From Candidatus Woesearchaeota archaeon (lineage in GTDB: Archaea > Nanobdellota > Nanobdellia > Woesearchaeales > UBA11576): a stretch of DNA of 64,000 nucleotides. Position 1 is the stretch's first letter. The number at the start of each line of letters is the position of its first letter. Below are positions 10,973 to 42,199 of the stretch, piece by piece. The notes under the pieces are model-generated. The model was not told the DNA's origin and ran no database searches. It saw only the letters and a program-made list of their open reading frames with translations. The stretch is taken from assembly GCA_016929255.1 (NCBI GenBank), contig JAFGJH010000029.1, positions 375-64,374 of the forward strand, in the 5' to 3' direction. A program made the position numbers and the translations under genes.

Positions 10973-11158
10973 CTCTGTTCCGAATCTGAATCACCTCTCC
11001 AGAACCGTGTTTAAATAGTTTGTCAGGACATGTCCAGTGGAGCCGTGTCCAGTGTGATGCAAGCATAAAAAACAACACCCATTTATAAATCTTTTAGTTA
11101 CCGCCAGGTGATTACAGAAAGAAAAACTATATAAATAGGGCATCAGCGACCAGAAAAC

Positions 11159-12265
11159 ATGCAAGGAGAAATATCAGAAGCAGATATACTGCAAGACTGC
11201 TCTTATGAACGCATATTGAAGCATTTCTTTGGCGAAAAAGCGTTCGATAAAAGCAGAAAGGCACGAGAGAAGAGGCTGAAGCAGATAAAGAAAGGGCTTG
11301 TGGTGCCCGGTGAAGTGATGGGCGAATACCTCATCCACCGCATGAACCCTGGCTGCATAGAGAGGGCAAGGAAGAGCGGCAAGACAATCCCCTGCTTCAA
11401 CATCCTGGATGTCACCCACCTTCCCACAGAGGAGGACCGCGTACTCAAGACACCAAACCCAGCACTCATGATAGACAGACCTGACCTTGAGTTCTACCTG
11501 CAGAATGAGTGGAGGGTCCTGTCCAGGCTCAACCACAGGAACATAATCAAGGCATACAGGCCAATACAAAAGAGGAAGGTGCCATACCTTCCGCTCGAAT
11601 ACCTGCCATACCAGCTGCATGAGATAATAGGAAAAAGACCCGCCCTTGAGGGAATTGTATTCTTCGCCCTCGAGGCAGCTACAGCAATGCAGTGCCTGGA
11701 GCAGGAGGGGGTCGTCCACGGAGACATAAAACCGCAGCAGTTCATGGCAGGACATGACCCTGAGGACTTCAGGTACAGCGTCGTGAAACTACTTGACTTC
11801 GGCGCGGCAAGGCATCCGGACATCCCTCCCGTCGGCGTGATATACACCCCAGCATACCTTGCGCCAGAAACAAAGAGGGCAGTCGAGACAGCAGGCCTCA
11901 GCGACGAGGAGAAGGTAGCTGCCTTCACGCACAAGTCAGACATTTTCGCACTCGGTCTCAGCTATGCAAGGGTCGCGCTCTCATCAGAGATGGCCAGTGC
12001 AGAAGTAAGCATCCTGTTCGCAGAGCCGGGCAAGGCTGCAAAGATGACCGTCGAAGCGATGTACGACCACCACCTGCCATACCTGTTCAACAGGATAATC
12101 GAGATGATGATTGCAGAAGATCCTGACGAGAGGATAGATGCAGATGAGGTCGTGAGGAGGTTCCAGGATTTCATGCTCACCTTCAACCTGGGCCCGAAGA
12201 CAGTCATAAGCAAAAACCTCTATTCAGGGAAGGTCTTAAACAGGAGCACAGACCGGCCTTATTAA
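11159..12265 (+). CDS. eukaryotic-like Ser/Thr protein kinase (variant catalytic loop HGDIKPQQ)
   Basis: VVHGDIKPQQF catalytic loop, LLDFGAAR (DFG), YTPAYLAPE (APE), and IFALGL subdomain IX. Divergent twin TATA elements lie in the upstream gap shared with the helicase. Confidence 0.7.
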   Translation: MQGEISEADILQDCSYERILKHFFGEKAFDKSRKAREKRLKQIKKGLVVPGEVMGEYLIHRMNPGCIERARKSGKTIPCFNILDVTHLPTEEDRVLKTPNPALMIDRPDLEFYLQNEWRVLSRLNHRNIIKAYRPIQKRKVPYLPLEYLPYQLHEIIGKRPALEGIVFFALEAATAMQCLEQEGVVHGDIKPQQFMAGHDPEDFRYSVVKLLDFGAARHPDIPPVGVIYTPAYLAPETKRAVETAGLSDEEKVAAFTHKSDIFALGLSYARVALSSEMASAEVSILFAEPGKAAKMTVEAMYDHHLPYLFNRIIEMMIAEDPDERIDADEVVRRFQDFMLTFNLGPKTVISKNLYSGKVLNRSTDRPY

Positions 12266-12378
12266 AGCCCGCAACCTTTATAAACCACCTCTTTCTCCAA
12301 CAAAGATATGCCCTGAATAAGGGATCTGGCAACCAAGTTGCCGACGTGGCCTGCAAAGGCGATATCAGGTGAAAAATA

Positions 12379-12924
12379 ATGCCAACAATGTTTGATGTTC
12401 CAGTAAATGACCTCATAGAAGAGGTAGCCAAAGACCTCCAGAAGGCCAGTGAAATAAAGCCGCCCGCGTGGTCTGTATTTGTCAAGACAGGAGTGCACAA
12501 GCAGAGGCCTCCGAAAAGAGCAGACTGGTGGTATGTCCGCTGCGCATCAGTCCTGCGGAGCGTGAGGCTGCTAGGCCCGGTCGGCGTGCAGAAGCTCAGG
12601 ACAAAATACGGCGGCAGGAAGCAGAGAGGCCACAAGCCAGAACACTTCTACAAAGGATCAGGTAACATCCTGAGGAAAGCGCTTCAGCAGCTGGAAGCAG
12701 CAGGGCTCATCAAGTACGAGAAAGAAGGCGTACGAAAAGGAAGAATCATAACCCCTAAAGGGATATCGCTCATTGACAAGGCAGCTGTAAGGCTGTACAA
12801 GACCAAGAAAGCATTGACGCCAAAAACAGCATCTGCGGAGAAACCTGCACCCGCGCCAAAACCAGAAGCAGCCCAGGCAGCACCAGCAAAGGAAGTGCCG
12901 AAAGCTCCTGGTAATGAATCATAA
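12379..12924 (+). CDS. rps19e: ribosomal protein S19e with C-terminal Ala/Pro/Lys-rich extension
   Basis: [19 protein letters not shown] ... [31 protein letters not shown] is a strong match to S19e. AGGTGA Shine-Dalgarno sits 7 nt before the ATG and a TATA element at 12276-12284. The C-terminal tail is [35 protein letters not shown]. Confidence 0.9.
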
Positions 12925-12939
12925 TAATATAACTACAAA

Positions 12940-13113
12940 ATGGCAAGATACATACACAAGTCAAGGAAGCTGAGACTCGCAAAGCTCGGCAGACAGACAA
13001 AATGGGCACCATTCTGGACAGTCCCGAAGATATACGGCACAGGAAGAAGGGTGCACCCTGGAAGGCACACAGCAGTCAAGCGCACCTGGAGAAGGCACAA
13101 GACGAAAGCTTGA
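12940..13113 (+). CDS. rpl39e: ribosomal protein L39e (57 aa; below the ORF-track size cutoff)
   Basis: Translation MARYIHKSRKLRLAKLGRQTKWAPFWTVPKIYGTGRRVHPGRHTAVKRTWRRHKTKA fits the L39e pattern (KKLRLAK...R.P.W......R...P.RRHWRR.K). It sits between S19e and L31e, as in archaeal ribosomal clusters. Confidence 0.8.
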   Translation: MARYIHKSRKLRLAKLGRQTKWAPFWTVPKIYGTGRRVHPGRHTAVKRTWRRHKTKA

Positions 13114-13149
13114 ATAGACCGGAAAAAAGATAAAAAAATACTGATCAGC

Positions 13150-13644
13150 ATGGCCACGACCGAAAGGACATACACAATCCCGCTGCGGAAGGAATATATG
13201 AAGGCCCCTATGTACAGGAGGGCCAAGAAAGCGGTCAACGCAGTGAGGACATTCATGAAGAAGCACATGAAGTGCGAGACCATACTCATAGGCCCGAAGC
13301 TCAACCTAAAGATATGGGAGCACGGCATCAAGAACCCGCCCCACCGCGTCAAGGTCACAGCAGTCAAGGACGACAAGGAAGACACAGCAAGGGTAGAGCT
13401 CTTCGGATTCGAGTTCAAGCCGAAGGAGAAGAAAGAGAAGAAGGAGAAGAAGCCTGCCGGAATCGCGGGCAAGATACAGGAGAAGCTCGCACCGAAACAT
13501 GAAGAGGCACCGAAAGCGGAAGTGACGACAAAGAAGGACATAAAAGAAGTGAAGAAGGGCGTCGAGAAGAAAGAAGAGAAGAAGGAAAAGAAAGTAGAGG
13601 CTGCACCCAACAAGGAAGCGAAACCGAAAGAAGAAAAGGCGTAA
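13150..13644 (+). CDS. rpl31e: ribosomal protein L31e with about 85-aa lysine/glutamate-rich C-terminal extension
   Basis: TYTIPLRKEYMKAPMYRRAKKAVNAVRTFMKKHMK...IGPKLNLKIWEHGIKNPPHRVKV matches the L31e core. The tail is KPKEKKEKKEKKPAGIAGKIQEKLAPKHEEAPKAEVTTKKDIKEVKKGVEKKEEKKEKKVEAAPNKEAKPKEEKA. Confidence 0.85.
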   Translation: MATTERTYTIPLRKEYMKAPMYRRAKKAVNAVRTFMKKHMKCETILIGPKLNLKIWEHGIKNPPHRVKVTAVKDDKEDTARVELFGFEFKPKEKKEKKEKKPAGIAGKIQEKLAPKHEEAPKAEVTTKKDIKEVKKGVEKKEEKKEKKVEAAPNKEAKPKEEKA

Positions 13645-13686
13645 TCATATTTCTTTAAAATATTTTCATCCTGAGGCAGGAGAAGA

Positions 13687-14688
13687 ATGACCCAAGAACT
13701 GCCGTTCGAAAAGACCAAAAGAAAGATTCTAGTCAAGAAACAGTCAGAGACATCTGACAAGTACGGCTGCAGCCCTGAAGCGCGCAGCACAGAGCAGCTG
13801 CTCCAGCTCGGGATAATAAACATAGACAAACCTAAAGGCCCGACATCACACCAGGTATCAGCCTACGTGCAGAAGATACTCGGAGCCAAGAAAGGAGGGC
13901 ACAGCGGCACACTCGACCCAAAAGTAACTGGAGTCCTGCCCACAGCCATAGAGAAGGCTACAAGGATCGTCCAAGCGCTGCTGGTCGCAGGAAAGGAATA
14001 CATCTGCCTGATGCACCTGCACAAGGAAGTTCCTGAAGAGCAGATAATGAAGGTGATGAAGGAATTCACGGGCAAAATAACCCAGCTTCCCCCTCTTAAG
14101 TCAGCGGTGAAGAGGCAATGGAGGGAAAGAAGGGTCTATTACATAGAGATACTTGACATCGTCGGACAGGATGTGCTTTTTGTAATAGGCTGCCAGGCAG
14201 GCACGTACATAAGGAAAATATGCCATGACATAGGAAAGTCTCTCGGCACAGGGGCGCACATGGCAGAGCTCCGCAGGACAAAGGCAGGGCCTTTCAACGA
14301 GAGCACGCTCGCTACACTCCACGACCTGACCGACGCATACTGGTACTACAAGAACGAGGGCAACGACAGGCTGCTCAGGCATATTGTGCAGCCGGTGGAA
14401 AATGCTGTGAGCCACCTGCCGAAGGTGTGGGTGATGGACACGACAGTGGACACACTGTGCCATGGCGCAGACCTTGCAGTGCCTGGCATCGCCAAGCTGG
14501 AGAGCGGCATAGAGCCTGACCAGACAGTCGCTGTGATGACACTCAAGCAGGAACTGGCTGCACTGGGAACTGCAAAGATAAACTCCAATGACATGATGCG
14601 CAGGGACAGGGGAATAGCAGTCAAGACAAAGAAGGTATTCATGGATCCAGGCACGTACCCCAAGGTGCAGAAGAAAGAGCCCCAGTAA
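13687..14688 (+). CDS. cbf5: H/ACA RNP pseudouridine synthase Cbf5 (TruB family with PUA domain)
   Basis: GIINIDKPKGPTSHQVSAYVQKILGAKKGGHSGTLDPKVTGVLP (TruB motifs I/II with the catalytic Asp), a C-terminal PUA-like region, and GGAG Shine-Dalgarno upstream. Confidence 0.9.
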   Translation: MTQELPFEKTKRKILVKKQSETSDKYGCSPEARSTEQLLQLGIINIDKPKGPTSHQVSAYVQKILGAKKGGHSGTLDPKVTGVLPTAIEKATRIVQALLVAGKEYICLMHLHKEVPEEQIMKVMKEFTGKITQLPPLKSAVKRQWRERRVYYIEILDIVGQDVLFVIGCQAGTYIRKICHDIGKSLGTGAHMAELRRTKAGPFNESTLATLHDLTDAYWYYKNEGNDRLLRHIVQPVENAVSHLPKVWVMDTTVDTLCHGADLAVPGIAKLESGIEPDQTVAVMTLKQELAALGTAKINSNDMMRRDRGIAVKTKKVFMDPGTYPKVQKKEPQ

Positions 14689-14770
14689 ACCACCAACCAC
14701 ATTTTCATCATTTCTCAGTGGTTAAAAAACGAAAAATTTATAAATGACTGGTTTTCTTTTCCGGGATAAA

Positions 14771-15280
14771 ATGGGCCGAAGAATCAACAGATATCTGAGC
14801 GAGAAAGAAAAGAGAGAAAGAGAAAACAATGACTCCCTGCTAGACAGACAACCAGACAGACAACCCGGCGCGACCCTCCAAGGCATCGCTAAGGTATTGA
14901 CCTACACCGGCGCGGCGCTGCTGGTCGCAGGAGCAATAGCTGCAGAGTTGCTGACAGCATATGACACCCAAAACCCCCTTGACAGGTACACTCCCTGCAC
15001 ATACACGATCCAGAAAGGGGACACGCTGACAAGCATCTGCAGGAGCGAGGGATTCACAGGCAATGACCTCCAGCACTGCATCGACCAGCTCTGCAGGGAC
15101 AACAGGCACAACCAAATGCCGGACAGGGTCACGCCCGTATTCGACCCTCTAGCAGGTGAATGCAGTTCTATGAAAGCAGGCGGAAATATAATCTTCGTAG
15201 ACAGAAATGGTGACGGCAAAGTCAACGGGCAGGAATGCAGCAGGGATTACGCTTCAGAAGTCCTAAGGGTCACACAATAA
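14771..15280 (+). CDS. membrane-anchored LysM-domain protein with C-terminal DxNGDGKV calcium-binding-like loop
   Basis: One TM helix (VLTYTGAALLVAGAIAAELL); LysM signature YTIQKGDTLTSICRSEGF; DRNGDGKVNGQE EF-hand/dockerin-like loop. The ORF-track ATG at 14744 abuts a TATA box (tttataaATG), so the ATG at 14771 is the more likely start (leaderless). Confidence 0.5.
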   Translation: MGRRINRYLSEKEKRERENNDSLLDRQPDRQPGATLQGIAKVLTYTGAALLVAGAIAAELLTAYDTQNPLDRYTPCTYTIQKGDTLTSICRSEGFTGNDLQHCIDQLCRDNRHNQMPDRVTPVFDPLAGECSSMKAGGNIIFVDRNGDGKVNGQECSRDYASEVLRVTQ

Positions 15281-15922
15281 TCAGTCAAGCTTTATCCCTT
15301 TTATGAAATCATAAGTCCGCGGCGCATCCTCACGCTTCAGCGTCTTCTTCAGGTGCTTGAGCTCTTCGACAGTGTCGACATCAGGCAGCTCGTCAAGGAG
15401 GACGAAAGTCATCCCCTTATCCTTGACTGCCCTCACCTGCTCGTCAAGAAGACGCTCTGTCCCGAAATGAAGCTCCTTGAAGAGGTCATGCGCCTTCTTC
15501 ATTCCGATAAGGTAATAGCCGCCATCCTCTGCAGGTCCGAGCACAACATCATAAGAAGACAGGGCATTGAATGCCTTGATTATCATCGCAGAAGGAAGGT
15601 CAGGGACATCACAGCCGATTATGACCACCTTCTCATAATCGTCAAGAAGGTCCTCGAAAGTACAGGACAGGTTCTCACCAAGGTTCATACCCCTCTGGAC
15701 GTAGAGGATAGCATGCGGAAACATGGTCCTGTACTGCTCCTTATGCTCATGGCCTATGAAGCTAAGATAAAGGTCATAGTCCCTGTCCTTGTTCTTATCG
15801 ATGATGTCTTTTATGAAAGACTCACAAAGCCTTGCAGAATTCTCCATGCCTATGACTCTGCCGATCTTCTTCTTGACTGTTCCCGCCTCCGGGAACTTGG
15901 CAAACAAGACAAGCGCATTCAT
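15281..15922 (-). CDS. DUF2064 (TIGR04282-like) nucleotidyltransferase/glycosyltransferase-fold protein
   Basis: N-terminal LVLFAKFPEAGTVKKKIG (AKxPxxGxVKTRL-like) and VVLGPAEDGGYYLIGMK (GPAxDGGYYLxG), both signatures of the DUF2064 family. Confidence 0.65.
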   Translation of the reverse strand: MNALVLFAKFPEAGTVKKKIGRVIGMENSARLCESFIKDIIDKNKDRDYDLYLSFIGHEHKEQYRTMFPHAILYVQRGMNLGENLSCTFEDLLDDYEKVVIIGCDVPDLPSAMIIKAFNALSSYDVVLGPAEDGGYYLIGMKKAHDLFKELHFGTERLLDEQVRAVKDKGMTFVLLDELPDVDTVEELKHLKKTLKREDAPRTYDFIKGIKLD

Positions 15923-16044
15923 TCTAGACCATAGGATGGATAATCAATAAATAAGCGATATAATATCAATATAACAAATATATAATGCATATGTTCATCT
16001 TGTTTTTAAAGCTTTTCACTGTATTTAAAATAAATACGCAAGAA

Positions 16045-31467: not shown

Positions 31468-31489
31468 GGGCTCGTAGCTCAGCCTGGTA
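31468..31489 (+). other. 22-nt exact duplicate of the 5' end of the downstream tRNA-Ala gene (tRNA fragment, possible att-site remnant or split-tRNA 5' piece)
   Basis: gggctcgtagctcagcctggta at 31468-31489 is identical to 31602-31623. Downstream of the first copy there is no D-stem partner, anticodon arm or acceptor 3' strand; instead GC-rich hairpins follow (31490-31600). Confidence 0.5.
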
Positions 31490-31601
31490 ACGCGGCACGG
31501 CATCGCTCCGTGCACACGCGAACCCGGTCCCATCTCGCGAAGCTCGATGGGACGCTGCAGCAAATAACCCGCGAAATCATTTAACAAAATCATTTCAACA
31601 T

Positions 31602-31705
31602 GGGCTCGTAGCTCAGCCTGGTAGAGCGTCCCGTTCGCAACGGGGAGGCCTCGGGTTCAAAAGACAGCAATGCGGATTGCTGAACTGAAAGTCCCGACGA
31701 GTCCA
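31602..31705 (+). tRNA. tRNA-Ala (anticodon CGC) with about 30-nt intron in the T-loop
   Basis: Acceptor GGGCUCG/CGAGUCC with the G3:U70 Ala identity pair; D-arm GCUC-AGCCUGGUA-GAGC; anticodon arm UCCCG-UUCGCAA-CGGGG; variable AGGCC; T-stem UCGGG/CCCGA. The T-loop is UUCAAA + AGACAGCAAUGCGGAUUGCUGAACUGAAAG + U, i.e. a non-canonical intron near position 59/60. Confidence 0.8.
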
Positions 31706-31709
31706 CTTT

Positions 31710-31809
31710 GGGGCATTAGTGTAGCTTGGACGGCAAGCGTTGCTCTGCCGGAGCAATATCACTGGCGGTTCGGGGCCGCCCGACCGGGGTTCAAATCCTC
31801 GATGCCCCA
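31710..31809 (+). tRNA. tRNA-Gly (anticodon GCC) with atypical D-arm and about 23-nt insertion (probable intron) in the variable region
   Basis: Acceptor GGGGCAU/AUGCCCC; anticodon arm UUGCU-CUGCCGG-AGCAA; canonical T-arm CGGGG-UUCAAAU-CCUCG. A 28-nt segment UAUCACUGGCGGUUCGGGGCCGCCCGAC sits between the anticodon stem and the T-stem and forms a hairpin. Only 4 nt separate it from tRNA-Ala. Confidence 0.7.
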
Positions 31810-32148
31810 TTTTTATTCCTTTTCGACACCAGAATGAATAATGAACTTATAGGCTTTCTATTGGTTGATATCCTTGGTTTTCTTGTTCTGGGATTTGTTG
31901 CTCATCTCCGGGCAAAACTTGATTTTTGTCCCAAATTGGCGGAATCAGTGCCAATAAGGACTTTCGATACCCGAATATCATGGATATAGCCCCTGAGAAT
32001 ATAAATGTTGTCCGGGAAAGGAGGATTTTCGATGCCTGGATGGTCTTGTTTATTATTATGACACTTAGAAATGACTAAAGTAGAACGCAGACTCCTACGA
32101 AACGTTTTTATATAGACTTGCTCTAAAAGCCCCAAAAGAGGTGTTAAA

Positions 32149-35100
32149 TTGGTTGTTGATGGTCAGAAGGCTGAAGCATACATAAAACAGGTTTTAGAAA
32201 AACTGAATCGTAAATATTCAGAGAAGACGTTTAGAACTCCTTTTGAAAACTTTATCAATTCATTGAGTCCAGATTATTCGCTTCAACAAGAGATAACGGA
32301 TGAAGGAATTGGAACACCAGACTTCAAAGCATTCTATAAAAATCACAAAGTGGGTTATATTGAAACTAAGGATTTTAATGCCACTCTTAAATTAGACACT
32401 GAGCAAATAAAACGGTATGTTGACTATGAGAATAACCTCTTGCTTACCAATTATGTTAAGTTTGTACTAATACGAAAAGGAAGAACAATACAGACTGCAA
32501 CGCTATTCTATCCCGAGATTAATTCTAAGAACAAAAGCCAAAAATTAAATCGGAAACACTTAGATGATGTTTTGACCCTCATTTCAGAATTCTTCGGATT
32601 TCCAATAACTCCAATCCAGTCAGCAAAAGAGTTGGCAGTCGAACTCGCAAAAAAAGCTAAATGGCTAAACTTGTTGTCTCAAGAGCAACTCGAGCTCGAA
32701 AGAACTCTCCCCAGAGATAAACGAGGTAGTATTTCTGAGTTCGAGATAGGACTTAAAGAGCTAATCGGAGATTACGAACAAGATATCAACTTTGGAGAAG
32801 CGTATGCAGAAACAATTACGTACGGACTCTTTTTAGCCAAGCTAGAATTAGGAAATAATAAAACACTGGATAAAAACACCGCGTATCAATTCATCCCTCC
32901 ACAAATAAAAGTCATCAAAAGAATTTTTAGGAACATAACCGACCCAGGAGAGCTTCCGCAGTCTCTCTCATGGGTGGTTGATGATATAATAGATATTCTC
33001 AATCTTACTGACTTAAATAAGTTCATTGCAGAGTTCCATGTGGATGGAGAAATATTCAGAGATCCATTTTTCCATTTTTATGAGGATTTTTTATCTGAGT
33101 TTAATCCAGTAAGAAGAAAGAAGATGGGGGTCTACTATACCCCCATCCCTATAGTTAAATTTATTGTCCGCTCAACAAATAGCATATTAAAGAAAGAGTT
33201 TCATCAAAAACTAGGATTTGCAACTGAAAACGTTCATACGCTGGATCCGTGTGTAGGAACTGGAACTTTCTGCGTATTGGCGATAATGGAAGGAATAAGT
33301 GAGTTGAAAAAACACAAATTGATGGGTTTGAAAAAAAGTAAAATAAAGAACCACTTCCTAAAGAGATTTTTTGGTTTTGAGATTTTAGTGTCGCCTTACA
33401 TAATTGCTCATATGAAGATTGGAGAATTACTTGAACAAGATAAATATGAGTTAGGTGTGGATGAACGAATACCTGTTTATTTAACAAACACACTGGAACT
33501 GCATCCTGAAGAAGGTCACGAACTATCTCCGTTTCTTACTGTAATTAAGAATGAAGTTCATACTGCAAATGAGATTAAGACCAAGAAACCGCTTCTTGTA
33601 GTAATGGGTAATCCGCCTTATTCAAGCAGTAGCTTTAATGATAAAAAATGGATTAAGAAGAAAATTGAGGATTATAAAGAAGGATTAAATGAAAGAAAAC
33701 TCGGAGATCTTGATGACGATTACGTTAAGTTCATACGGTTTGCTCAGTGGGAGATTGAAAGACAAGGCAAAGGTGTTGTTGCTTTTATAACTAGCAACGG
33801 GTATCTTGAAGGAATAACTTTTCGAAAAATGCGTGAAAATCTGTGCAAGACATTTGATAAAATATATATCTTAAACTTACATGGAAACTCTAGAATAGGT
33901 GAGCATTCTCCTGACGGCTCAAAAGATGAAAATCCATTTAACATCCAGACGGGTGTTGCAATTGGTTTGTTTGTGAGAAATTCTGAAAAACCAAAGAAAA
34001 TTGCAGATGTCTACTACTTTAATGAGTATGGGCTCCGCGATCTAAAACTTAAGTTCTTGAATAAGAATATGGTTGACACAGTTAAATGGAAAAAACTTGA
34101 TATGTTTGATGAGAATTTCTGGTTTGTTCCTAAGGATCATTCAACTTACAAAAAATATGCTGAGTTTTTCGAGGTTAGACATATTTTCAAAGAGTATAGT
34201 AGTGGTGTAGAAACTAAACGAGATAATTTTGTTATAGACTTTGAAAAAAAAGAACTGATTGATAGACTTACTAAATTTGCTAATACTGACGAACGTGTTG
34301 ATGTTACGAGACGTATTTTCGGGCTTTCTTCAAAAAGTGATTTGGATGTGGTTGGTGCTCAGAAGTTCTTGAAGAGCAATAAATATAAGTTATCAGATTT
34401 TGTTATAAAATATAACTACAGACCCTTTGATGAACGGTTATTATTTTATAAAGAATCTCTTGTTAGTAGAACAAGATTGCCATTTATGAACAGTTTATTA
34501 TTGCCAAATATTGCTCTGAATTTATGTAGACAAGTCAGACCGTCTCACCCATTTAATCATGTTTTTGTCACTAACAACGTTACTGATAGGATTTTGTTAT
34601 CAAATACAACCTCTGAGTGTAGCTTTGTTTTCCCTCTGTATATCTATGAAAAAGAAACGCAGTTGAAACTAGGCTCACAGAAATCAAAAACAGGAAAGAA
34701 ACAAATTAATTTTACAGAGGAGTTCAAAACGTTCTTAAAAAATGAATACAAAAAAGATGTCGCACCAGAAACTGTAATGGGTTACATATATGCCATACTA
34801 AATTCCTGCAAATATAAGACAGAGTTTCAAGAAGCATTACGAACTGACTTTCCGAGGGTTTACTTTGTCAAGAGTTTGAAGAAATTTATAAAGATTGCCG
34901 AATTAGGTTCTGAGCTAGTTGATCTTCACCTTTTGAAAAAGAAGAAACTGAACAGGGTCGGAACTTTTGAAGGAAAAGGAAACAACTCTGTTGAAAAGAT
35001 AATATATAAAGATGATAAAATATTCATAAACAAAAATCAATACTTTGGCAAAATCAGTAAGGACTTATGGGAGTTCAAGATTGGAATATATCCTGTATTA

Positions 35101-35241
35101 AATAAATGGCTCTATTACCGAAAAGGTAGAACGTTATCAAATAATGATGTCGAGACGTTTATTGATATAGTCAGCAATATCTCTGAAACAATCAAGATAT
35201 TAACAGAAATAGACAAAATAGACATTTTTAAAGGAGAATAA
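32149..35241 (+). CDS. single-polypeptide type IIG/IIL restriction-modification enzyme (MmeI-like: N-terminal PD-ExK nuclease + gamma-class N6-adenine methyltransferase + C-terminal target-recognition region)
   Basis: TTG start with AAGAGGTG Shine-Dalgarno and an upstream TATA. N-terminal GTPDFKAFYKNHKVGYIETKD (D...E.K nuclease motif). Methyltransferase motifs VYYTPIPIV (motif X), LDPCVGTGTF (motif I), VVMGNPPYS (motif IV NPPY). About 400-aa C-terminal region; 1030 aa. Confidence 0.65.
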   Translation: MVVDGQKAEAYIKQVLEKLNRKYSEKTFRTPFENFINSLSPDYSLQQEITDEGIGTPDFKAFYKNHKVGYIETKDFNATLKLDTEQIKRYVDYENNLLLTNYVKFVLIRKGRTIQTATLFYPEINSKNKSQKLNRKHLDDVLTLISEFFGFPITPIQSAKELAVELAKKAKWLNLLSQEQLELERTLPRDKRGSISEFEIGLKELIGDYEQDINFGEAYAETITYGLFLAKLELGNNKTLDKNTAYQFIPPQIKVIKRIFRNITDPGELPQSLSWVVDDIIDILNLTDLNKFIAEFHVDGEIFRDPFFHFYEDFLSEFNPVRRKKMGVYYTPIPIVKFIVRSTNSILKKEFHQKLGFATENVHTLDPCVGTGTFCVLAIMEGISELKKHKLMGLKKSKIKNHFLKRFFGFEILVSPYIIAHMKIGELLEQDKYELGVDERIPVYLTNTLELHPEEGHELSPFLTVIKNEVHTANEIKTKKPLLVVMGNPPYSSSSFNDKKWIKKKIEDYKEGLNERKLGDLDDDYVKFIRFAQWEIERQGKGVVAFITSNGYLEGITFRKMRENLCKTFDKIYILNLHGNSRIGEHSPDGSKDENPFNIQTGVAIGLFVRNSEKPKKIADVYYFNEYGLRDLKLKFLNKNMVDTVKWKKLDMFDENFWFVPKDHSTYKKYAEFFEVRHIFKEYSSGVETKRDNFVIDFEKKELIDRLTKFANTDERVDVTRRIFGLSSKSDLDVVGAQKFLKSNKYKLSDFVIKYNYRPFDERLLFYKESLVSRTRLPFMNSLLLPNIALNLCRQVRPSHPFNHVFVTNNVTDRILLSNTTSECSFVFPLYIYEKETQLKLGSQKSKTGKKQINFTEEFKTFLKNEYKKDVAPETVMGYIYAILNSCKYKTEFQEALRTDFPRVYFVKSLKKFIKIAELGSELVDLHLLKKKKLNRVGTFEGKGNNSVEKIIYKDDKIFINKNQYFGKISKDLWEFKIGIYPVLNKWLYYRKGRTLSNNDVETFIDIVSNISETIKILTEIDKIDIFKGE

Positions 35242-35258
35242 ATACCCGAGGTTGAATC

Positions 35259-36356
35259 TTGTCTGAATTCACATCCGAATCTGTAACGGAAGGCCACCCA
35301 GATAAAATCTGTGATCAAATCAGCGATGCTGTTCTTGATGCATGCTTAAAACAGGACAGAAAGTCTCGAGTGGCATGTGAAGTTTTTGCAACTGGCAACC
35401 ACCTAATCCTGGGTGGAGAAATCACTTCTAAGGCTAAGATAAATCCTGAAGCCATTGCTAGACGAATAATTAAGAGAATAGGTTACACATCACAGGATAT
35501 GGGCTATTCTTATGACTCAGTAAATATCCAGAACTTAATACAGAAACAGTCTCCAGAAATCTCAATAGGGGTTGATAAAGGGGGTGCAGGAGATTCTGGT
35601 CTAATGTTCGGGTATGCTACAAACGAGACCAAAGAGTTAATGCCTTTACCAATTCTCCTTGCTCATAAACTAGCTAAACAATTAGCAGATATGCGCCGTT
35701 CGAAGTTGAGATATCTAAGACCTGATGGTAAGGTTCAGGTGACTGTTGATTACGAAAATAAGACTCCTAAATCTGTTAGTGCAATAGTTGTATCTGCACA
35801 ACACACCTCAGAAATTTCTCTCAAGAAACTCAGAGATGACTTAGAGAAACATGTTATTAAACCAGTTTGTTCCAAGTACATGACAAAAAAAACTGAGTTG
35901 ATGATAAATCCAGCAGGGAAATTTACTATTGGAGGACCCGTTGCGGATACTGGACTTACCGGAAGAAAACCTGGAGTTGACACCTATGGAGGTATAGCTG
36001 CGCATGGTGGAGGTGGCTTTTCTGGAAAAGATCCTACCAAAGTGGATAGATCTGGAGCATATATGGCCCGATATGTTGCCAAAAGTATCGTTTCCTCAAG
36101 ATTGGCTGATAAGTGTGAGATTCAATTGGCTTATGCAATAGGTAAAGCACAACCAGTCTCTTTACTAATTGATACACAAGGAACGAATAAGATTCCTGTT
36201 CAGGAGATATATGGGATAGTCAAACGTAAATTTGACTTCACACCTAACGAGATAATAAGAAAGTTGAATCTACTTAACCCGATATATGAAAAAACTGCTG
36301 CGTATGGGCATTTTGGAAGACCTAGTTTCTCTTGGGAACAATGTTGTAAACTCTAG
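35259..36356 (+). CDS. metK: S-adenosylmethionine synthetase, bacterial/eukaryotic MetK type
   Basis: [57 protein letters not shown] are canonical MAT motifs. TTG start 18 nt after the upstream stop. Archaea normally use a distinct archaeal-type MAT. Confidence 0.85.
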
Positions 36357-36555
36357 TCTTTTGAGTACCATCCGCAGTACCAACAATCACCTTATACATC
36401 TCATCAAACCTCTTCTCGAAGACGAAGTCCTTGTCCAGGGCTGTGTATCTGAGATAGCTCGCTAATGACTTGTGCCCCTTGGCCTGGGCGTTGTTCTGGA
36501 TTCTCTCGTATTGGGATTGAGTTACCCTGAACAATATCATCCGTGTTTTGGCCAT
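36322..36555 (-). CDS. MobC-like ribbon-helix-helix protein (plasmid mobilisation accessory protein family)
   Basis: [36 protein letters not shown] matches the MobC/RHH pattern (R...VRxTxxExxxIxxxAxxxGxSxSxYxR). Its 3' end overlaps the metK end by about 35 nt. Confidence 0.5.
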
Positions 36556-36655
36556 TGTTGGTTCCCAATAAATGCCTATTTAACCGGAGCAGTGAAACCG
36601 CTGAAAGCCCTGAATTCCGGCTTTCTGGGCGGTTTCGCCATTGATTTAATGGCGC

Positions 36656-37990
36656 TCAATGGTAATAGCATATTTCCTCCACCATTTTCTTCGCCTTTTT
36701 GGGCGTCAGAGCAAAGCTTTTCTTTCCGTCAACAAACTGCGAGTATCTTGGAAGCAGGTCTTTCTTGCAGACGTAAATCCAGCAGTCAAAGTTCTCATTC
36801 AGCCAGGCAGTCTTCTCAGCAAGGTCATCCAACTTGTTGGTTCCGGTCTCAATCTCAATAGCTACCTTGTAATCTTCAATGTTGAGATAGACATCAACCC
36901 GCCTGTCCTTGACCTCTTTCTCAATCTGCATGTTCTCATGCAGCTCTGCAAACAAATGCTTCATGTAGAAGTGATACGGAGTCTCCTGAGAGTCACCTCT
37001 CTGGATGTAGAAGCCTCCGCTCAAATGGCTGTCAAGCTCTTTACCTCTTATGAACTCAAAGCCCTGCTTCTGAGCGCGTATCTTCTGCTCCTTGGTCAAA
37101 TCCCGCGCTCTGTAGAAGACTTTTTCCAGTCTCTGGCCATTATACTCTAATCCTGCCTTCTTATCTACACAGAGGGCGCCAGATTTGATTTCAGACCTGA
37201 CCTGAAGAAAGACCTCAACCTCCTTCGGATCTTTCAACTGAGGCACTGAATCAATGTCATACCGAGAATAGTAATCAGTCGCTTCCTCACGTTTCCACTT
37301 CAGCCAATCCTGCTCCTCAAAATACTGCCTGGCCCTGAAGCTTGCCTCTTGCAGGACATGCTCGGAATAATCACTATTTGCAGGGATGGACTTAGGATTA
37401 CGCACCTTGATTTTGTACTGGACAAGCTCCTCAACAACATTCTCAAAACGCCTAAGTTTTTCTTCTTCTCTGCGTTTCTCCAATGCTATCCTTCTGCGCT
37501 CCTCGGCCTCTGCTTCGAGTTTTCTTTGTCTGGCCAGTTCTTCTTCAATCTGCTTCTGTTTTACAATCAATGGAGCTCTTTTACAGAGATCATCAAGAAG
37601 CTGCTGGAATTGGGCGACCTCTTCCTTCGGGTATTTCAGGAGTTTCTTTTTTATGACATCCAGCCTTGACATGACCTGAGAGGAATTAAACTGACTGAAA
37701 TCCTCGCGGGCATAGCTCTTTATCTCGTTAAGGCGCTGCAAACGCTGCTTTTCTTCTTCCTGCTTGTCTTCCTTTCTTTGATTCAACCATCTTCGTAAAT
37801 TCCACGTTATGAGGAACAAGAAGATTGATGATAAAAGTATGATTCCTATCGCAAGCCAGGGCAATGCGAGAAAAGAATTGACATCTCGCATTACTTCAAG
37901 CCCGTGTTTCTTCCAAAACACCAGGCCCGCAGCCCCTATAGCTACAGCTACAACTATGAAGACTTCTACGTTAGAATCCATATTTTTCAC
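36656..37990 (-). CDS. membrane-anchored coiled-coil protein with C-terminal PD-(D/E)xK nuclease-like domain
   Basis: Two N-terminal TM helices (VEVFIVVAVAIGAAGLVFW, WLAIGIILLSSIFLFLITW), a long E/K/R-rich coiled coil, and C-terminal HFYMKHLFAELHEN...RRVDVYLNIEDYKVAIEIETGTNK (D...E.E.K-like). Confidence 0.5.
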   Translation of the reverse strand: MKNMDSNVEVFIVVAVAIGAAGLVFWKKHGLEVMRDVNSFLALPWLAIGIILLSSIFLFLITWNLRRWLNQRKEDKQEEEKQRLQRLNEIKSYAREDFSQFNSSQVMSRLDVIKKKLLKYPKEEVAQFQQLLDDLCKRAPLIVKQKQIEEELARQRKLEAEAEERRRIALEKRREEEKLRRFENVVEELVQYKIKVRNPKSIPANSDYSEHVLQEASFRARQYFEEQDWLKWKREEATDYYSRYDIDSVPQLKDPKEVEVFLQVRSEIKSGALCVDKKAGLEYNGQRLEKVFYRARDLTKEQKIRAQKQGFEFIRGKELDSHLSGGFYIQRGDSQETPYHFYMKHLFAELHENMQIEKEVKDRRVDVYLNIEDYKVAIEIETGTNKLDDLAEKTAWLNENFDCWIYVCKKDLLPRYSQFVDGKKSFALTPKKAKKMVEEICYYH

Positions 37991-38417
37991 ATCCTACTTA
38001 CTGATTTCTAAGTATAAAAATTTTGTAATGAATTTGTAATACAATATCCGCAATCATGATTTATAAATTTTGTAATGCAAAGCGATATACAAAATCGCCT
38101 TTAAATAATTTGTAGCCCATTTGCGGGCCACATTCATAATAAGTCCTGTGAACATATTAACCTCCTTAACAAAAACTACGGCATACATACGGAATATGCC
38201 GCAGCCGATATTTGAATGTCCTTAACAACAGACATATAACGGATATATAACATAAAAAGGTCTTTAACAAAAACCATACAACAACACTACAACAACTATT
38301 ATGTCGGGAGGATATAAGAATATTAGCGGACTTTCGTGCCCACAAATCAATTAGAAACAAGCAGGTATAAAAAGAGTCGAGTCAAAAAATGCGTACAGAT
38401 TCCTGTACAGAAACACC

Positions 38418-39026
38418 TTATTTTTGTTCCTTTTCCTTTTGATGGTTCTTGAATGCTGTTTCTATGCTGTTTATGACAGGTCTACCCATAAATTCAAGAA
38501 GAAGATGATTTGATTTTAAATTGTTAATGCCTTCTTGGCGTAATTTTTTATCTTCAAAATCAAGAGAATATTTTGCAATACCTTCAGCCATTTTACAGGA
38601 TAGGAATTTTGACTCGCTTGAAAGCTGATTGACAAGATCCAATACCAATATTTCTCCAGTAATTCCTTCTTTGTGCTCTTCTAACTCATCCAATGCAGTT
38701 TTGATTTTATAGATGAAACCTTTCACCGCTCTGTCGTATTCTTCTGAATCTGCAAGATCTATCCTTATCCTTATTGTTCCTATCTCTTCTGTTATGAACT
38801 TAAATTGTATATGCGGGAAGTCGTGTGGCTGGTCTGGATGGTGTTCAATAGCGTAATTCCTGTGTTTGGGCACATCCCTTTCTGATCTAGTCTTTACCCT
38901 GAGTGAAAATCCTTCTTCGATTATGTTGATATTTCCTCCTTCTGCCACCTCCACGCGGATTCCCGACTTAGAATCATCATACGTTGTCTGGTGAAAATAC
39001 TTATTTGAATATTTGACCCATTCCAT
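38418..39026 (-). CDS. hypothetical protein (island gene)
   Basis: 202-aa A/T-rich ORF, same strand as its neighbours; no family recognised. Confidence 0.45.
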   Translation of the reverse strand: MEWVKYSNKYFHQTTYDDSKSGIRVEVAEGGNINIIEEGFSLRVKTRSERDVPKHRNYAIEHHPDQPHDFPHIQFKFITEEIGTIRIRIDLADSEEYDRAVKGFIYKIKTALDELEEHKEGITGEILVLDLVNQLSSESKFLSCKMAEGIAKYSLDFEDKKLRQEGINNLKSNHLLLEFMGRPVINSIETAFKNHQKEKEQK

Positions 39027-39029
39027 ACA

Positions 39030-39902
39030 TTATCTCCTCGTGATATTAAACTGTTTCATGAGCTTATCTTCATAAGATAAACTATTCCACTCCGAACTCA
39101 TCTTGTTTGCTAGAGATGATGCGATGCTGCGTTTCCATTCATCTGTAACTTTCTCTTCCTCACTTAATCTCAGCGGGTCTTCCACATCAGAATTAAACGA
39201 ATCTTCACTAAGACCATGTTCGTAGTACAGTTTTCTCCATAGAACCAGATTCTCATAGTCAAGTCTAAGCGCATTCTCCTTGAAGGATATCCTAAATTCT
39301 TTGCGCAGAGCAACGCTTATTGATTTTAAGTATAATGTCAGATAATCCTTGGAGTAATGTTTATGGGTATTGTCAACTCCGAAGAATTCAGTTGGCGAGA
39401 GTGTCCTTTTTCCAATGAAAACTTTTTTAATCTGAATATCAAGTGTAAAATCTTTTTTTACACCTTTGATAACATTATGTTCAAATTCGCAGCCCACCTG
39501 TTGACCTGCAAAAGTCGTTGTAAAAAAAGCTCTTTTACGTTTATACTTAATGGCTAGAAGATTCTGGTTACCTTTTGTTTTAGTTGTTGTCCCTAGTATT
39601 TTAGCTATAACATCATTGAATGTTTCATCACCTTCTTTAAGAGCATTCAATGTTTCCCACACATCAACATCAACTTTGATATTCTTTGATCTTTTTGGTA
39701 AAGCAGTGATATTGTGTGATAGAGAATTCTGTAATGCACTTAGTTCAGCAGTAGATATTTTTTGTATATCTGAGTTAAAGTTTTTAAAAAATAGTTCAAG
39801 CTCTTTCTTTCTCGAATCATCCATGTTTTCAATCAATCTCTCATAAAACTCTATATTTCTTTTTCTAGTTGCGCTGTCGGAATTTGTTTTTTTTAGGCCC
39901 AT
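39030..39902 (-). CDS. hypothetical protein (island gene)
   Basis: 290-aa A/T-rich ORF, 4 nt from the downstream gene (operon); no family recognised. Confidence 0.45.
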   Translation of the reverse strand: MGLKKTNSDSATRKRNIEFYERLIENMDDSRKKELELFFKNFNSDIQKISTAELSALQNSLSHNITALPKRSKNIKVDVDVWETLNALKEGDETFNDVIAKILGTTTKTKGNQNLLAIKYKRKRAFFTTTFAGQQVGCEFEHNVIKGVKKDFTLDIQIKKVFIGKRTLSPTEFFGVDNTHKHYSKDYLTLYLKSISVALRKEFRISFKENALRLDYENLVLWRKLYYEHGLSEDSFNSDVEDPLRLSEEEKVTDEWKRSIASSLANKMSSEWNSLSYEDKLMKQFNITRR

Positions 39903-40000
39903 TTAGTTCACCTTGACTACTAAGTATACTTAGTATAAAGGTATACTATTATTTAAATATTCCTATTTATTTATAAATAAATGTTGAAAATTCTTCGGTT

Positions 40001-40783
40001 TTAACTGCTACTTCGTAACATACTACATATTCTTTCAAACTCCTTCGGCGTTATCTCCCCATACGCCAGCCTTCTCTTGGCAATATCCAGCGGGTCCTCG
40101 GGCTGCTGCGGTGCGGCTGTTATTGACGCTGCCTGGCTCTGCGGTTTGTCATCTACATCCACATCCTCTACCATCTTGTTGAGTTCTGTGTCAAGGATCC
40201 ATGTGTAGGTCAGAGTGGTGTCTATCTCATCATGCCTCATGAAATGCTGCACTTTTTCGATTGGCACGCCATTATTCAATAAATGTGTACACCTGGAATG
40301 CCTCAGCGTATGAAATTTATACTGGTGCTGGACTCTGCCGCAGCCGTCCTCATGGATTGGCTTGAACATCCCTGCCCGTTCCATTGCCTTCTTGTAGTCC
40401 TTGTAGATTCCACTCTTTGTGTAATGGGGCATGCCGTAGATGTCTGAAGGCAGAAAGTATTCCTCATCAGGGTTCATCAGCTTCCACTTCTGCAATACAG
40501 GAATACATACCGAACTTATAGGCACGAAGCCATCCTTGTAGTTCTTGCCCTCAACAACCTTCAAGCGCTTGTTGTCCAGATCAATGTCAGTCCACCTTAA
40601 CTTAGCCACCTCTGAAATACGCAGGGCACAGAAGAAAGCCATAAACGTGGCCATCATGGTCTTGGGTGTGTTGATATGGTCGAACAGCTTAACCATTTCA
40701 TTCTTGAAGAAGACATTCGGATACTTCCGACGTTTCTTCTTGGTTTCCTGTGTCTTGCTTAAAGGTTTTCTTGGCCGCGCCAT
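40001..40783 (-). CDS. tyrosine recombinase/integrase (XerC/D-phage integrase family)
   Basis: Catalytic-domain motifs ALRISEV (Arg I), HTLRHSRCTHLLNNGVPIEKVQHFMRHDEIDTTLTYTW (H-x-x-R ... Y nucleophile region). Confidence 0.8.
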   Translation of the reverse strand: MARPRKPLSKTQETKKKRRKYPNVFFKNEMVKLFDHINTPKTMMATFMAFFCALRISEVAKLRWTDIDLDNKRLKVVEGKNYKDGFVPISSVCIPVLQKWKLMNPDEEYFLPSDIYGMPHYTKSGIYKDYKKAMERAGMFKPIHEDGCGRVQHQYKFHTLRHSRCTHLLNNGVPIEKVQHFMRHDEIDTTLTYTWILDTELNKMVEDVDVDDKPQSQAASITAAPQQPEDPLDIAKRRLAYGEITPKEFERICSMLRSSS

Positions 40784-41181
40784 TTTAGACCTCCAATCAC
40801 AGCCATCATCTCAGCCATGATATCCTTGCCTGCCTTTGTGTTCATCATCCTGCGCCATTCATAGCTCATAGTCATGCCATCCTTGATAGAGACCTTTCTA
40901 GCTTTGAGCTTTTCCTTGACATGAGACGGTGCGCGTTCCAGAAGCAGCCAGCAATAGACCGTCTTTGGGCTCAGCTCGTGCTTCATCAGTAGGTCGTAGA
41001 TTGCCCTTTGTGTCTCATTCAATTCCTTGTGCTTGCCTTCCCGAAAGCTCTGCACCTGCAACACCAATCCAACCAGCTCCTTGTCCGGTGTGTCCTTTGT
41101 GACCGGCTTCAAAATCTGTCGGATGGCTTCTATCCGCTCAAACACATTCATCTTTTTCCATTTCCTGTTCATGGGTTTCAT
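40759..41181 (-). CDS. hypothetical protein upstream of and overlapping the integrase start (possible regulator/excisionase-like)
   Basis: 140-aa ORF; repeated motif actttgtataacaaagcgatatc just upstream (41211-41236). Confidence 0.4.
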   Translation of the reverse strand: MKPMNRKWKKMNVFERIEAIRQILKPVTKDTPDKELVGLVLQVQSFREGKHKELNETQRAIYDLLMKHELSPKTVYCWLLLERAPSHVKEKLKARKVSIKDGMTMSYEWRRMMNTKAGKDIMAEMMAVIGGLKWRGQENL

Positions 41182-41941
41182 ACCTCATGTATAATCCCAG
41201 AACACGAATAAAAACTTTGTATAACAAAGCGATATCAATAAATAGAAACAGCCACATCATCTGGTAAAACAGGGGAAACACCCCCATAAAAACAATCCCG
41301 ACTGCATCGGGATTGTTGAACGGGTAAAAAGGAATGAGTGCCGACTGCATCGGCATCATTCCTTTCTTCCCCATTTTATTTCACTGCGATGCCGGGAGGT
41401 GAGACCAGCGAACCTGAGGTTCGCGCTGACTCGCAGCCCTATTTTTATCCATCCGTGACAGAAAATCGGTTTTTGTGATCTACAATCACTTCTCGAACGC
41501 TTTCAAGCCGCCCTTCTTGAAAAGAGAATATGCGCGAAGGAAACTGAGTATCATATCAGAAGAGTCAAGGCCAGAATACTTCTGAAGAACATGAAAACCT
41601 GACTTGGTATTATTGTCATGCGTCTTGTAGAATATCGAGAAATAGCAATAGAAAAGGCATCGTCCGACGAGCTCGCTGTCAGAAGCGGCCAGCCCCGTGC
41701 CTGAAAACTCATTCATCTTATTCATGAGCGGCCTGAACCTCTCAGCGTTTAGCTTTATCGTGATCTGCTTTGTGATTCAATCACCTCTAAAGCGCATGAT
41801 ATCTTCAGGCAACACATAAAATAGGCTATTATTTAATTGTTTTGAAAATCGCCAGGACTGCAGCCCATGCCAAAAATGTCACACTTTCGTCTGTTTCTTC
41901 CCAATTTTGTTTATAAATCTGTTTAACATACATATCACATC

Positions 41942-42199
41942 ATGACATATTCGTCTTGCTGTGAAAATGAGAATTATTGCGCGAGCCAGGGCAGTGCAGG
42001 GAGCGGTACGGGCAGAGACAACCCTATAAGGGACGCGTACGGAAGCAGCATCCTGCAGACCAGCAATTCTGAACACAGCTGGTACCAGAACGGAAACAGC
42101 AATCCGGGCTATGATGCAGGCATAAACAAGGTAGCTGGAGCGTACACGAGCACACCTGTTTGCGGCAGATTCGAGGCTGCGAACAACCTCCTGCTGTGA
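41942..42199 (+). CDS. small Gly/Ser/Asn/Cys-rich ORF (possibly N-terminal part of the next gene if a frameshift is present)
   Basis: 85-aa ORF ending 2 nt before the ATG at 42202 of the HExxH protein, in a different frame. Confidence 0.2.
   Translation: MTYSSCCENENYCASQGSAGSGTGRDNPIRDAYGSSILQTSNSEHSWYQNGNSNPGYDAGINKVAGAYTSTPVCGRFEAANNLLL

Follow-up and report, generated by a model that had tools for sequence, protein, structure and literature searches.

A block of about 9.5 kb in the genome of a Woesearchaeota archaeon is probably an integrated mobile element. It runs from position ~31,810 to ~41,290 (at most 41,385) of the window, by which we mean the whole 64,000-nucleotide stretch of contig JAFGJH010000029.1 that was analysed. 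We regard it as likely that this is a reduced integrated element of a DPANN family, located at the 3' end of a tRNA-Pro(CGG) gene and consisting of a backbone of near-host composition together with A/T-rich cargo, namely a restriction-modification (RM) gene followed by a MetK gene, and the pair p290 and p202. Comparison with sequences of other Woesearchaeota and Nanoarchaeota suggests that it is most likely a reduced member of a DPANN family of integrative, conjugative-like elements. As a defence island it is in principle fairly ordinary, its few unusual details being the DPANN element family, a split integration module and an RM-MetK operon.

The original prediction for this stretch, that a mobile element with defence cargo is integrated beside a tRNA gene, stands: a related contig (L189) has no such block at the syntenic site, and a sister element (on contig L192) occupies a similar site. 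All five of the gene types that it named, an RM enzyme, MetK, a ribbon-helix-helix (RHH) protein, a membrane nuclease-like protein and an integrase, are found where it placed them.

Composition, host and insertion site

The GC content of the window is about 0.50. It falls to 0.33–0.37 at 32–36 kb and 38–40 kb, is 0.44–0.48 at 36–38 and 40–42 kb, and is 0.56 past 42 kb. Strand-symmetrised tetranucleotide distances were calculated for 2-kb segments, each against the rest of the window, and give z = 6.7–7.9 for 32–36 kb and 6.8 for 38–40 kb, with the flanks within one standard deviation. The profile is not uniform, and the shift to A/T-rich DNA that had been proposed for the block is real, but only the cargo is A/T-rich, the backbone being close to the host. 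This is seen from the GC content at third codon positions (GC3), which is 0.32 for the RM gene, 0.30 for MetK, 0.35 for p202 and 0.31 for p290, and 0.62 for the NikA-like gene, 0.54 for p444, 0.60 for the recombinase (Int) and 0.64 for p140. In the host genes measured it is 0.62–0.70 immediately to the left of the block and reaches 0.75 to its right. The block is therefore not uniformly A/T-rich, and the drop in composition is a mosaic, with two foreign-looking cargo patches within a backbone that resembles the host. A further tetranucleotide outlier (z = 3.1) lies at 2001–4000, inside a 2055-aa open reading frame (ORF; 1477–7644, reverse strand) that probably encodes a repetitive large surface protein.

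The flanking genes for TYW3, RNase P p30 and diphthamide synthase are archaeal. An identical TYW3 protein occurs in a metagenome-assembled genome (MAG) named 'Candidatus Woesearchaeota archaeon', and all TYW3 relatives with a named source organism come from Woesearchaeota or Nanoarchaeota, which points to a DPANN archaeon (Woesearchaeota) as the host.

Two tRNA genes precede the block. The first, tRNA-Ala(CGC) (31602–31705, forward strand), has an intron of ~30 nt in the T-arm region; it gives a partial Rfam hit at 31602–31659 and was assigned by alignment to the intron-less tRNA-Ala(CGC) of the related contigs L185 and L187. The second, tRNA-Pro(CGG) (31710–31809, forward strand), has a 27-nt intron at 31730–31756, an Rfam tRNA score of 38.6 bits and the anticodon loop UUCGGGG, and its exons are identical to the tRNA-Pro(cgg) called by ARAGORN on L185 and L187. 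On three related contigs the intron-less orthologs are called by ARAGORN as tRNA-Ala(cgc) and tRNA-Pro(cgg). In the window ARAGORN finds no tRNA, because the introns are at unusual positions, and Rfam finds two. The last tRNA gene had originally been taken for a tRNA-Gly, which the Rfam alignment and the intron-less orthologs correct to an intron-containing tRNA-Pro(CGG). The tRNA-Gln given for it by the ARAGORN intron search is a miscall, according to both Rfam and orthology. A further Ala-like, tRNA-like sequence from 31468 is a candidate only. Throughout this cluster (31468–31809) the introns lie at non-canonical positions, in the D-loop or T-arm, and the orthologs in related Woesearchaeota are intron-less. 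The tRNA-Pro(UGG) gene of L192 (14970–15104) contains two introns, and genes of this kind are missed or miscalled by ARAGORN.

The 3' end of tRNA-Pro(CGG) appears to be the integration target, forming the attL side. DNA homology to relatives ends at 31817/31818 and restarts at 42199. On L189, whose TYW3 is 68% identical, the order is p179, p508, HTH_8, p71, tRNA-Pro, a radical-SAM gene and then homologs of p328, p151, p219, HTH_8 and rubrerythrin, so that both flanks are kept and syntenic and the block is absent. On L187 a different, lipoprotein-like gene follows the tRNA, and on L185, the closest relative (87%), the contig stops right after the tRNA. The ~0.8 kb that separates the right arm of the element from the first syntenic host gene (41385–42160) has an intermediate GC content of 0.44. 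It contains an uncalled 79-aa ORF (41486–41725) and an 85-aa ORF upstream of p328, and has no homolog in the sister elements or in L189, which carries the radical-SAM gene there.

A low-GC block beside a conserved tRNA could in principle be an assembly or binning chimera joined at that tRNA. Two Logan short-read contigs from the same sequencing run bear on this, both of them 100% identical to the window. L001 (31757–36417) runs from exon 2 of tRNA-Pro through the RM and MetK genes into the NikA-like gene, and L197 (36388–50783) starts in the NikA-like gene, passes Int and continues over 9 kb of host genes that are syntenic. Both junctions of the block are thus reproduced, and this speaks against a chimera. 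The arrangement of tRNA-Pro, left arm, NikA and Int is also the same on L192, which comes from a different sample. What could be held in favour of a chimera is that the short-read contigs break at exon 2 of tRNA-Pro (31757) and inside the NikA-like gene, where their only overlap lies (36388–36417), and that records of the RM, MetK and integrase proteins exist from Logan only and not from the NCBI MAG. Taking these points together, we consider a chimera very improbable. The assembly graph branches exactly at the junction of cargo and backbone and where exon 2 of tRNA-Pro begins, which suggests that variants of the cargo, the element or the strain that share these sequences co-exist in the sample.

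Element ends, backbone and family

The sister element on L192 comes from another sample, and its Int is 80% identical to that of the window. In the same order and orientation it has an intron-bearing tRNA-Pro(UGG), a left arm, cargo, a NikA homolog (78%), the recombinase, p140 and a right arm. Its cargo is different, consisting of a winged helix-turn-helix protein, small ORFs and a copper P-type ATPase.

The two arms are conserved. The left arm (31838–32040) is non-coding and contains, at 31880–31895, the left copy of a 16-nt inverted motif, TTCTTGTTCTGGGATT. Within it, positions 31877–32035 are 68% identical (blastn) to L192 14776–14933, which also lies directly after tRNA-Pro, and pairwise alignment lengthens the conserved stretch. 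The right arm (41182–41290) was delimited from a three-element alignment, and carries the other copy of the inverted motif (41193–41208), an operator-like palindrome (41216–41235) and a terminal hairpin, GGGG-AAACA-CCCC (41272–41285). In the window element and in L192 alike, the motif (TTCnnGTTCTGGGRTT) is inverted between the two arms, and the right-end segment 40036–41287 is 77% identical to L192. The window, L192 and L193 all carry the palindrome, TTTGTATAACAAAGCGATAT, upstream of p140, and the window has a second copy upstream of p444. The 4-bp terminal hairpin shows compensatory changes in L193.

Homology between the elements ends at ...CCCCCAT in the window (41284–41290) and ...CCCCATT in L192, which corresponds to GCCCCA, with which the tRNA ends, and a following T, and CCCCCAT is a candidate for the attR core. 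An alternative attR candidate, CCCCATTTTATTT (41370–41382), repeats directly, but imperfectly, the 3' end of the tRNA together with its flank, CCCCATTTTTATT (31805–31817); it is short, and not statistically compelling alone. The right edge of the element is accordingly placed at ~41290–41385, in preference to 41240 as previously suggested.

Between p444 and p202 lies a conserved non-coding region (38069–38283), 72% identical to L193 13480–13609. It comprises the palindrome copy TTTGTAATGCAAAGCGATAT, a nearly invariant hairpin CGGCATA-N9-TATGCCG, and two full repeats of CCTTAACAA with a variant, CTTTAACAA. These features make it a candidate operator or site resembling an origin of transfer (oriT).

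The recombinase gene Int (40001–40783, reverse strand) encodes 260 aa, with a catalytic domain (Pfam Phage_integrase, 2e-25), a basic N-terminal tail and a SHOCT-like C-terminal tail. The residues R55, K80/K83, H158, R161, H184 and Y193 (R-K-HxxR-H-Y) are invariant in 24 sequences, in agreement with the tyrosine integrase originally proposed. The protein has no N-terminal core-binding (SAM-like) domain, the XerA model aligning from position 84 only, and this is a family-wide feature. There are 96 homologs of 250–290 aa, and those with a source name all come from Woesearchaeota or Nanoarchaeota. A role for Int as a XerA-like chromosome resolvase was ruled out, since it is absent from the L189 syntenic site and its homologs flank type IV secretion-like genes.

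Upstream of Int, and overlapping it by 25 nt, is p140 (40759–41181, reverse strand), an all-helical protein for which a fold search gave no assignment. A p140 homolog precedes and overlaps Int in all six related loci that were examined (L192, L193, L195, L198, L199 and L026), and we infer that p140 is a DNA-binding partner of the recombinase. The overlap contains no slippery heptamer, and a p140-Int fusion by programmed frameshift was accordingly rejected; translational coupling is more likely. The p140 homolog of L193 (9603–10037) has an in-frame stop codon, and is either a pseudogene or the result of a sequencing error.

The family context comes from three further Woesearchaeota/Nanoarchaeota contigs whose recombinases are 55–61% identical to that of the window. 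The genes that directly follow the p140-Int pair there are drawn, in part or in full, from one set: a TrbC-type pilin, a PrgI-VirB4/TraG-type ATPase, a DNA methylase and a resolvase. On L199 only the ATPase and resolvase are seen. These type IV secretion-like genes lie at 10909–13315 on L195, 12520–18569 on L198 and 14167–17340 on L199, and the modules look like parts of integrative conjugative elements (ICEs) in DPANN. No description of such DPANN integrative/conjugative elements was found in a literature search. Since the window copy has no transfer genes, it is most likely a reduced element, possibly mobilisable in trans.

The NikA-like RHH protein (36322–36555, reverse strand) matches Pfam PF21983 NikA-like at 31.2 bits (cut-off 27). 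It had been described as MobC-like; the RHH assignment holds, but no MobC match appears in the Pfam output, and its scores against NCBIfam MobA and MbpA are far under their cut-offs. It is 78% identical to the L192 protein over residues 1–58 only, and its last ~19 codons are antisense to the 3' end of MetK. On this homology, which stops at residue 58, the junction of cargo and backbone appears to lie at ~36382–36388.

The adjacent gene, p444 (36656–37990, reverse strand), encodes a protein with one or more transmembrane helices at its N-terminus, followed by a long coiled coil and by a C-terminal domain that may be PD-(D/E)xK-like. Its family has 94 cluster representatives among 1.8 billion proteins, with E336, D366, E379, E381 and K393 invariant. 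In the AlphaFold2 model (pLDDT 91) the N-terminal part forms helices, a long coiled coil comes next, and the C-terminal domain is alpha/beta, with fold hits to Can2, AF1548, BamHI, PspGI and EcoRII. The top Foldseek hits are nucleases, at E values of at least 0.028, in keeping with the membrane nuclease-like protein that was expected here. A profile search of PDB and Pfam brought up nothing beyond noise from coiled coils and transmembrane segments, and there was no match in PLSDB plasmids. The C-terminal domain is homologous to that of an L198 protein that follows the VirB4/TraG-like ATPase (hhalign 96.9%, E 1.5e-10); a 342-aa protein of L199 (p342), considered as a further relative, is not related. 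p444 is a candidate DNA-processing protein.

The second cargo patch consists of p202 (38418–39026, reverse strand), which has no recognisable family and no match in Pfam, NCBIfam, PADLOC or PHROGs, and p290 (39030–39902, reverse strand). The latter has a weak VapB-antitoxin-like RHH segment at residues 73–115, scoring 24.8 bits with Pfam VAPB_antitox, under the 27.9 cut-off.

The whole arrangement resembles that of bacterial integrative mobilisable elements and ICEs at tRNA 3' ends. A tRNA gene and a tyrosine recombinase stand at opposite ends, the cargo is swappable (RM-MetK here, the copper ATPase in L192), an RHH relaxosome-accessory-like protein is present, and relatives have pilin and VirB4/TraG-like ATPase genes. 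It differs from these bacterial elements in that the host is a DPANN archaeon, in that the recombinase has no core-binding domain and is accompanied by a separate p140 at every locus examined, and in that the window element has neither a recognisable relaxase nor a long att duplication. An ICE has mating-pore genes of its own (VirB4/TraG-type ATPase, pilin), which are absent from the window copy and present in L195, L198 and L199.

An integrated provirus or a virus-derived satellite would likewise have an integrase adjacent to a tRNA gene, and MetK homologs are common on viral contigs (399 stretches), the window MetK matching phrog_1569. However, the block yielded no viral hallmark such as a capsid, portal or terminase gene, and the only proteins with PHROGs matches are the integrase and MetK. 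Scans of IMG/VR with p444, Int and p290 revealed no relatives, and the relatives of the integrase adjoin type IV secretion-like genes. A viral origin is thus highly unlikely, and a plasmid- or ICE-like element is preferred.

Several observations weigh against an integrated element of this kind. No long att direct repeat was found in a repeat search of the window, the 23-mer at the tRNA 3' end occurs once only, even when three mismatches are allowed, and the att-like repeats anticipated at the two boundaries amount to CCCCAT(T) or the 13-nt imperfect repeat. An Rfam scan of the right end found no tRNA fragment. None of the island proteins matches a relaxase family in Pfam, NCBIfam or PHROGs, and the window copy has neither an excisionase nor secretion genes, which weakens the case for present-day mobility. 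The near-host composition of the backbone may mean that it is long resident.

Some of the same points could be explained if the block were a decayed and immobile remnant in a variable hotspot downstream of tRNA-Pro, with an integrase that is a fossil or has been recruited, and with cargo that arrived by separate events. The lack of long att repeats and the near-host GC3 of the backbone would fit this, as would the content after the tRNA, which differs in each of three relatives, and the sequence at 41385–42160, which is unexplained. The in-frame stop in the L193 p140 homolog would show that decay occurs within the family. Against this, the catalytic residues of the integrase and the p140 frame are intact in the window, both arms are kept, with inverted motif and hairpin, at 68–77% identity to L192, and the branching of the assembly graph at the junction suggests co-existing cargo variants. 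We therefore consider a decayed remnant rather doubtful, and a reduced integrated element the better description of the block.

The RM enzyme and its possible link to MetK

The RM gene (32149–35241, forward strand) starts with TTG, preceded by the Shine-Dalgarno-like sequence GAGGTG, and encodes a protein of 1030 aa. Its domains are a PD-ExK nuclease at the N-terminus, an N6-adenine methyltransferase of the gamma class (NPPY) and a target recognition domain (TRD) of Type ISP type. PADLOC identifies it as REase_MTase_IIG (5e-215), with a second IIG model matching over residues 24–992, which confirms the prediction of a single-chain RM enzyme; it assigns no defence family to the other island proteins. 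In an alignment with seven bacterial homologs the motifs P57-D58...E72-x-K74, the S-adenosylmethionine (SAM) binding motif and N488-P-P-Y491 are intact and invariant. The Pfam matches are Type_ISP_C (3e-70), N6_Mtase and Eco57I, together with MmeI_Mtase at threshold only (29.0 bits, cut-off 27).

Among solved structures (phmmer) the best matches are DrdV, LlaGI and LlaBIII (7LO5, 1.3e-40; 5FFJ, 3.9e-37; 4XQK, 6.5e-37). No helicase or ATPase domain was found in Pfam, and the PDB matches start at residue 684 of LlaGI and 848 of LlaBIII, past their motor domains. Given that there is no ATPase domain, and that the methyltransferase and TRD are of DrdV type, the protein is predicted to be a DrdV-like, Type-ISP-related type IIL enzyme with no helicase.

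The resemblance to DrdV (PDB 7LO5/7LVV) extends to the length (1029 as against 1030 aa), the order of endonuclease, methyltransferase and TRD, and the lack of an ATPase motor. The methyltransferase and TRD of DrdV share an origin with those of Type ISP enzymes, and DrdV works without translocation (10.1101/2021.01.06.425610). It is different in that the phmmer match is confined to the methyltransferase and TRD (residues 310–928), and in that the window gene belongs to an archaeal host and stands in an operon with MetK. LlaGI and LlaBIII, which are Type ISP enzymes, have a homologous methyltransferase and Type_ISP_C specificity domain, but are 1406–1578 aa long, and the window enzyme has no RecA-like translocase and therefore cannot use the translocation-collision mechanism.

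The enzyme had originally been called MmeI-like. This is right for the architecture, since the MmeI family, the archetype of type IIL, also combines restriction and modification in a single polypeptide with a PD-ExK nuclease, an NPPY N6-adenine methyltransferase and a TRD. It is not right for family membership: the window enzyme barely matches MmeI_Mtase and none of the MmeI-specific TRD, N-terminal or C-terminal domains in Pfam, its TRD is Type_ISP_C, and MmeI is not among the PDB matches at E <= 1e-3. Its relatives among GTDB species representatives number 20, all of them bacterial, with identities of 30–40% where most of the protein aligns. A bacterial origin is thus possible, but would be remote. 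With relatives no more than 40% identical, the target specificity cannot be predicted; the enzyme is uncharacterised, and its specificity is probably new.

Directly downstream is MetK (35259–36356, forward strand), a SAM synthetase of bacterial type, as had been predicted (TIGR01034, 532 bits against a cut-off of 309, 7e-160; PF00438, PF02772 and PF02773). The motif GGGGFSGKD is readable in its translation. The spacer after the RM stop codon is only 17 nt long and contains a Shine-Dalgarno-like GAGGT and no terminator. With this layout and a common composition, RM and MetK appear to form one operon. No description of an RM-MetK operon was found in a literature search.

The nearest relative of this MetK, P0002, is 72% identical over residues 3–361 and is encoded on a 426-kb contig (L023) that also encodes an archaeal histone and a Ski2-like helicase. 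Other relatives, at up to 60% identity, come by their source names from bacteria of the candidate phyla radiation, Omnitrophica, Acidobacteria, Nanoarchaeota and Nitrososphaeraceae. DPANN genomes carry many bacteria-like genes (PMC8204110). Given this, and a closest relative that is archaeal, the comparison does not indicate a recent transfer of MetK from a bacterium to an archaeon. The case for inter-domain transfer that had been read from the bacterial-type genes of the island is consequently weak. The RM enzyme is the one protein whose relatives are all bacterial, and they are distant ones.

P0002 directly adjoins, in convergent orientation, a type IIG gene of Eco57I type (1065 aa), which shares only the methyltransferase core with the window enzyme. 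Both members of the 72% MetK clade therefore abut type IIG genes, which hints, from two cases, at a role in SAM supply. The type IIG gene of L023 lies in a low-GC (0.31) insert (11138–15957), where it is followed by an NTP_transf_2 nucleotidyltransferase and a 166-aa partner, a pair that may be toxin-antitoxin-like. On another contig, L026 (6250–9170; a metagenome contig of 33% GC), a distant p140-recombinase pair (33% and 24% identity) stands immediately upstream of a MetK that is 57% identical to the window MetK; this association of MetK with an element may be real or a coincidence.

MetK is also found on other mobile DNA, with 188 plasmid records in addition to the viral stretches mentioned above. 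Extra copies occur on plasmids with SAM-consuming gene sets, for example on large Streptomyces and Clostridium plasmids, and in being carried on such DNA the window MetK is similar. A metagenome scan with MetK gave no close relatives, being swamped by housekeeping MetK through the HPDKICDQ motif.

The link between MetK and RM has a number of points against it. It rests on two loci. No MetK was found in the flanks, up to 10 kb on each side, of the 20 RM homolog loci. A tblastn search with the two RM enzymes against 160 other MetK loci revealed no such neighbour except one weak match, in a search that detects only relatives of one or the other enzyme, and the two plasmid MetK contexts inspected have no RM neighbour. 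On L023, moreover, MetK has a GC content of 0.41, like its flanks (0.42–0.47), and the RM gene one of 0.31, so that the adjacency there could be coincidental, a chance insertion beside a housekeeping gene.

It is therefore possible, though in our view less probable than a connection of some kind, that MetK is merely a housekeeping SAM synthetase or a passenger, whose place beside the RM gene has no functional meaning. Bacterial-type MetK is named in MAGs of Nanoarchaeota, Nanoarchaeia and Nitrososphaeraceae, and the wealth of bacteria-like genes in DPANN, the flank-like GC of the L023 MetK and the RM homologs without MetK would all agree with this. On the other side, the window MetK has a GC3 of 0.30, as against 0.62–0.75 in the host genes measured, and is absent from the L189 syntenic site. 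It lies 17 nt from the RM stop, with its own Shine-Dalgarno-like sequence and no intervening terminator, and both clade members abut type IIG genes.

Proposed mechanism and meaning

On the basis of these observations, we hypothesise that p140 and the short tyrosine recombinase, expressed from the right-end operon, would bind the arm motifs (TTCnnGTTCTGGGATT) and recombine at or next to the 3' end of tRNA-Pro, leading to integration and excision. NikA and p444 would process the DNA for its transfer, with a larger relative providing the mating apparatus. The MOBC relaxases, which are restriction-endonuclease-like, provide a precedent for DNA processing by a protein of the p444 type.

The type IIL enzyme would use SAM to methylate one strand of an asymmetric site in host DNA, and would cut unmodified incoming DNA near that site. 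The co-transcribed MetK would make SAM, so that neither self-methylation nor SAM-dependent restriction would run short of it in a host of reduced metabolism or under viral depletion of SAM. We know of no SAM-degrading virus of DPANN. There is a parallel in phage T3, whose SAM lyase and inhibition of MetK act as a counter-defence: according to one report, the T3 SAMase both cleaves SAM and inhibits SAM synthesis, making the supply of SAM a weak point of type I RM and BREX (10.1101/2023.02.27.530186).

Taken to its full extent, the proposal is that RM-MetK is a self-sufficient defence cassette, carried by an undescribed DPANN family of integrative conjugative or mobilisable elements, with a two-protein recombinase, and with a membrane PD-(D/E)xK protein and NikA in place of a classical relaxase. 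In this combined form it is put forward tentatively, and we would not expect every part of it to hold.

The DrdV-like type IIL enzyme, being uncharacterised, is of modest practical interest. If functional, the RM-MetK operon would be a defence gene with its own cofactor supply, and would bear on the arms race centred on SAM, as between phage T3 and type I RM or BREX. The mobile elements and defences of DPANN are poorly charted. An element family whose ends can be recognised, whose integration module is distinctively split, whose cargo can be exchanged and whose larger members have conjugation-like genes would give a handle on gene flow in these archaea, which are tiny and symbiotic.

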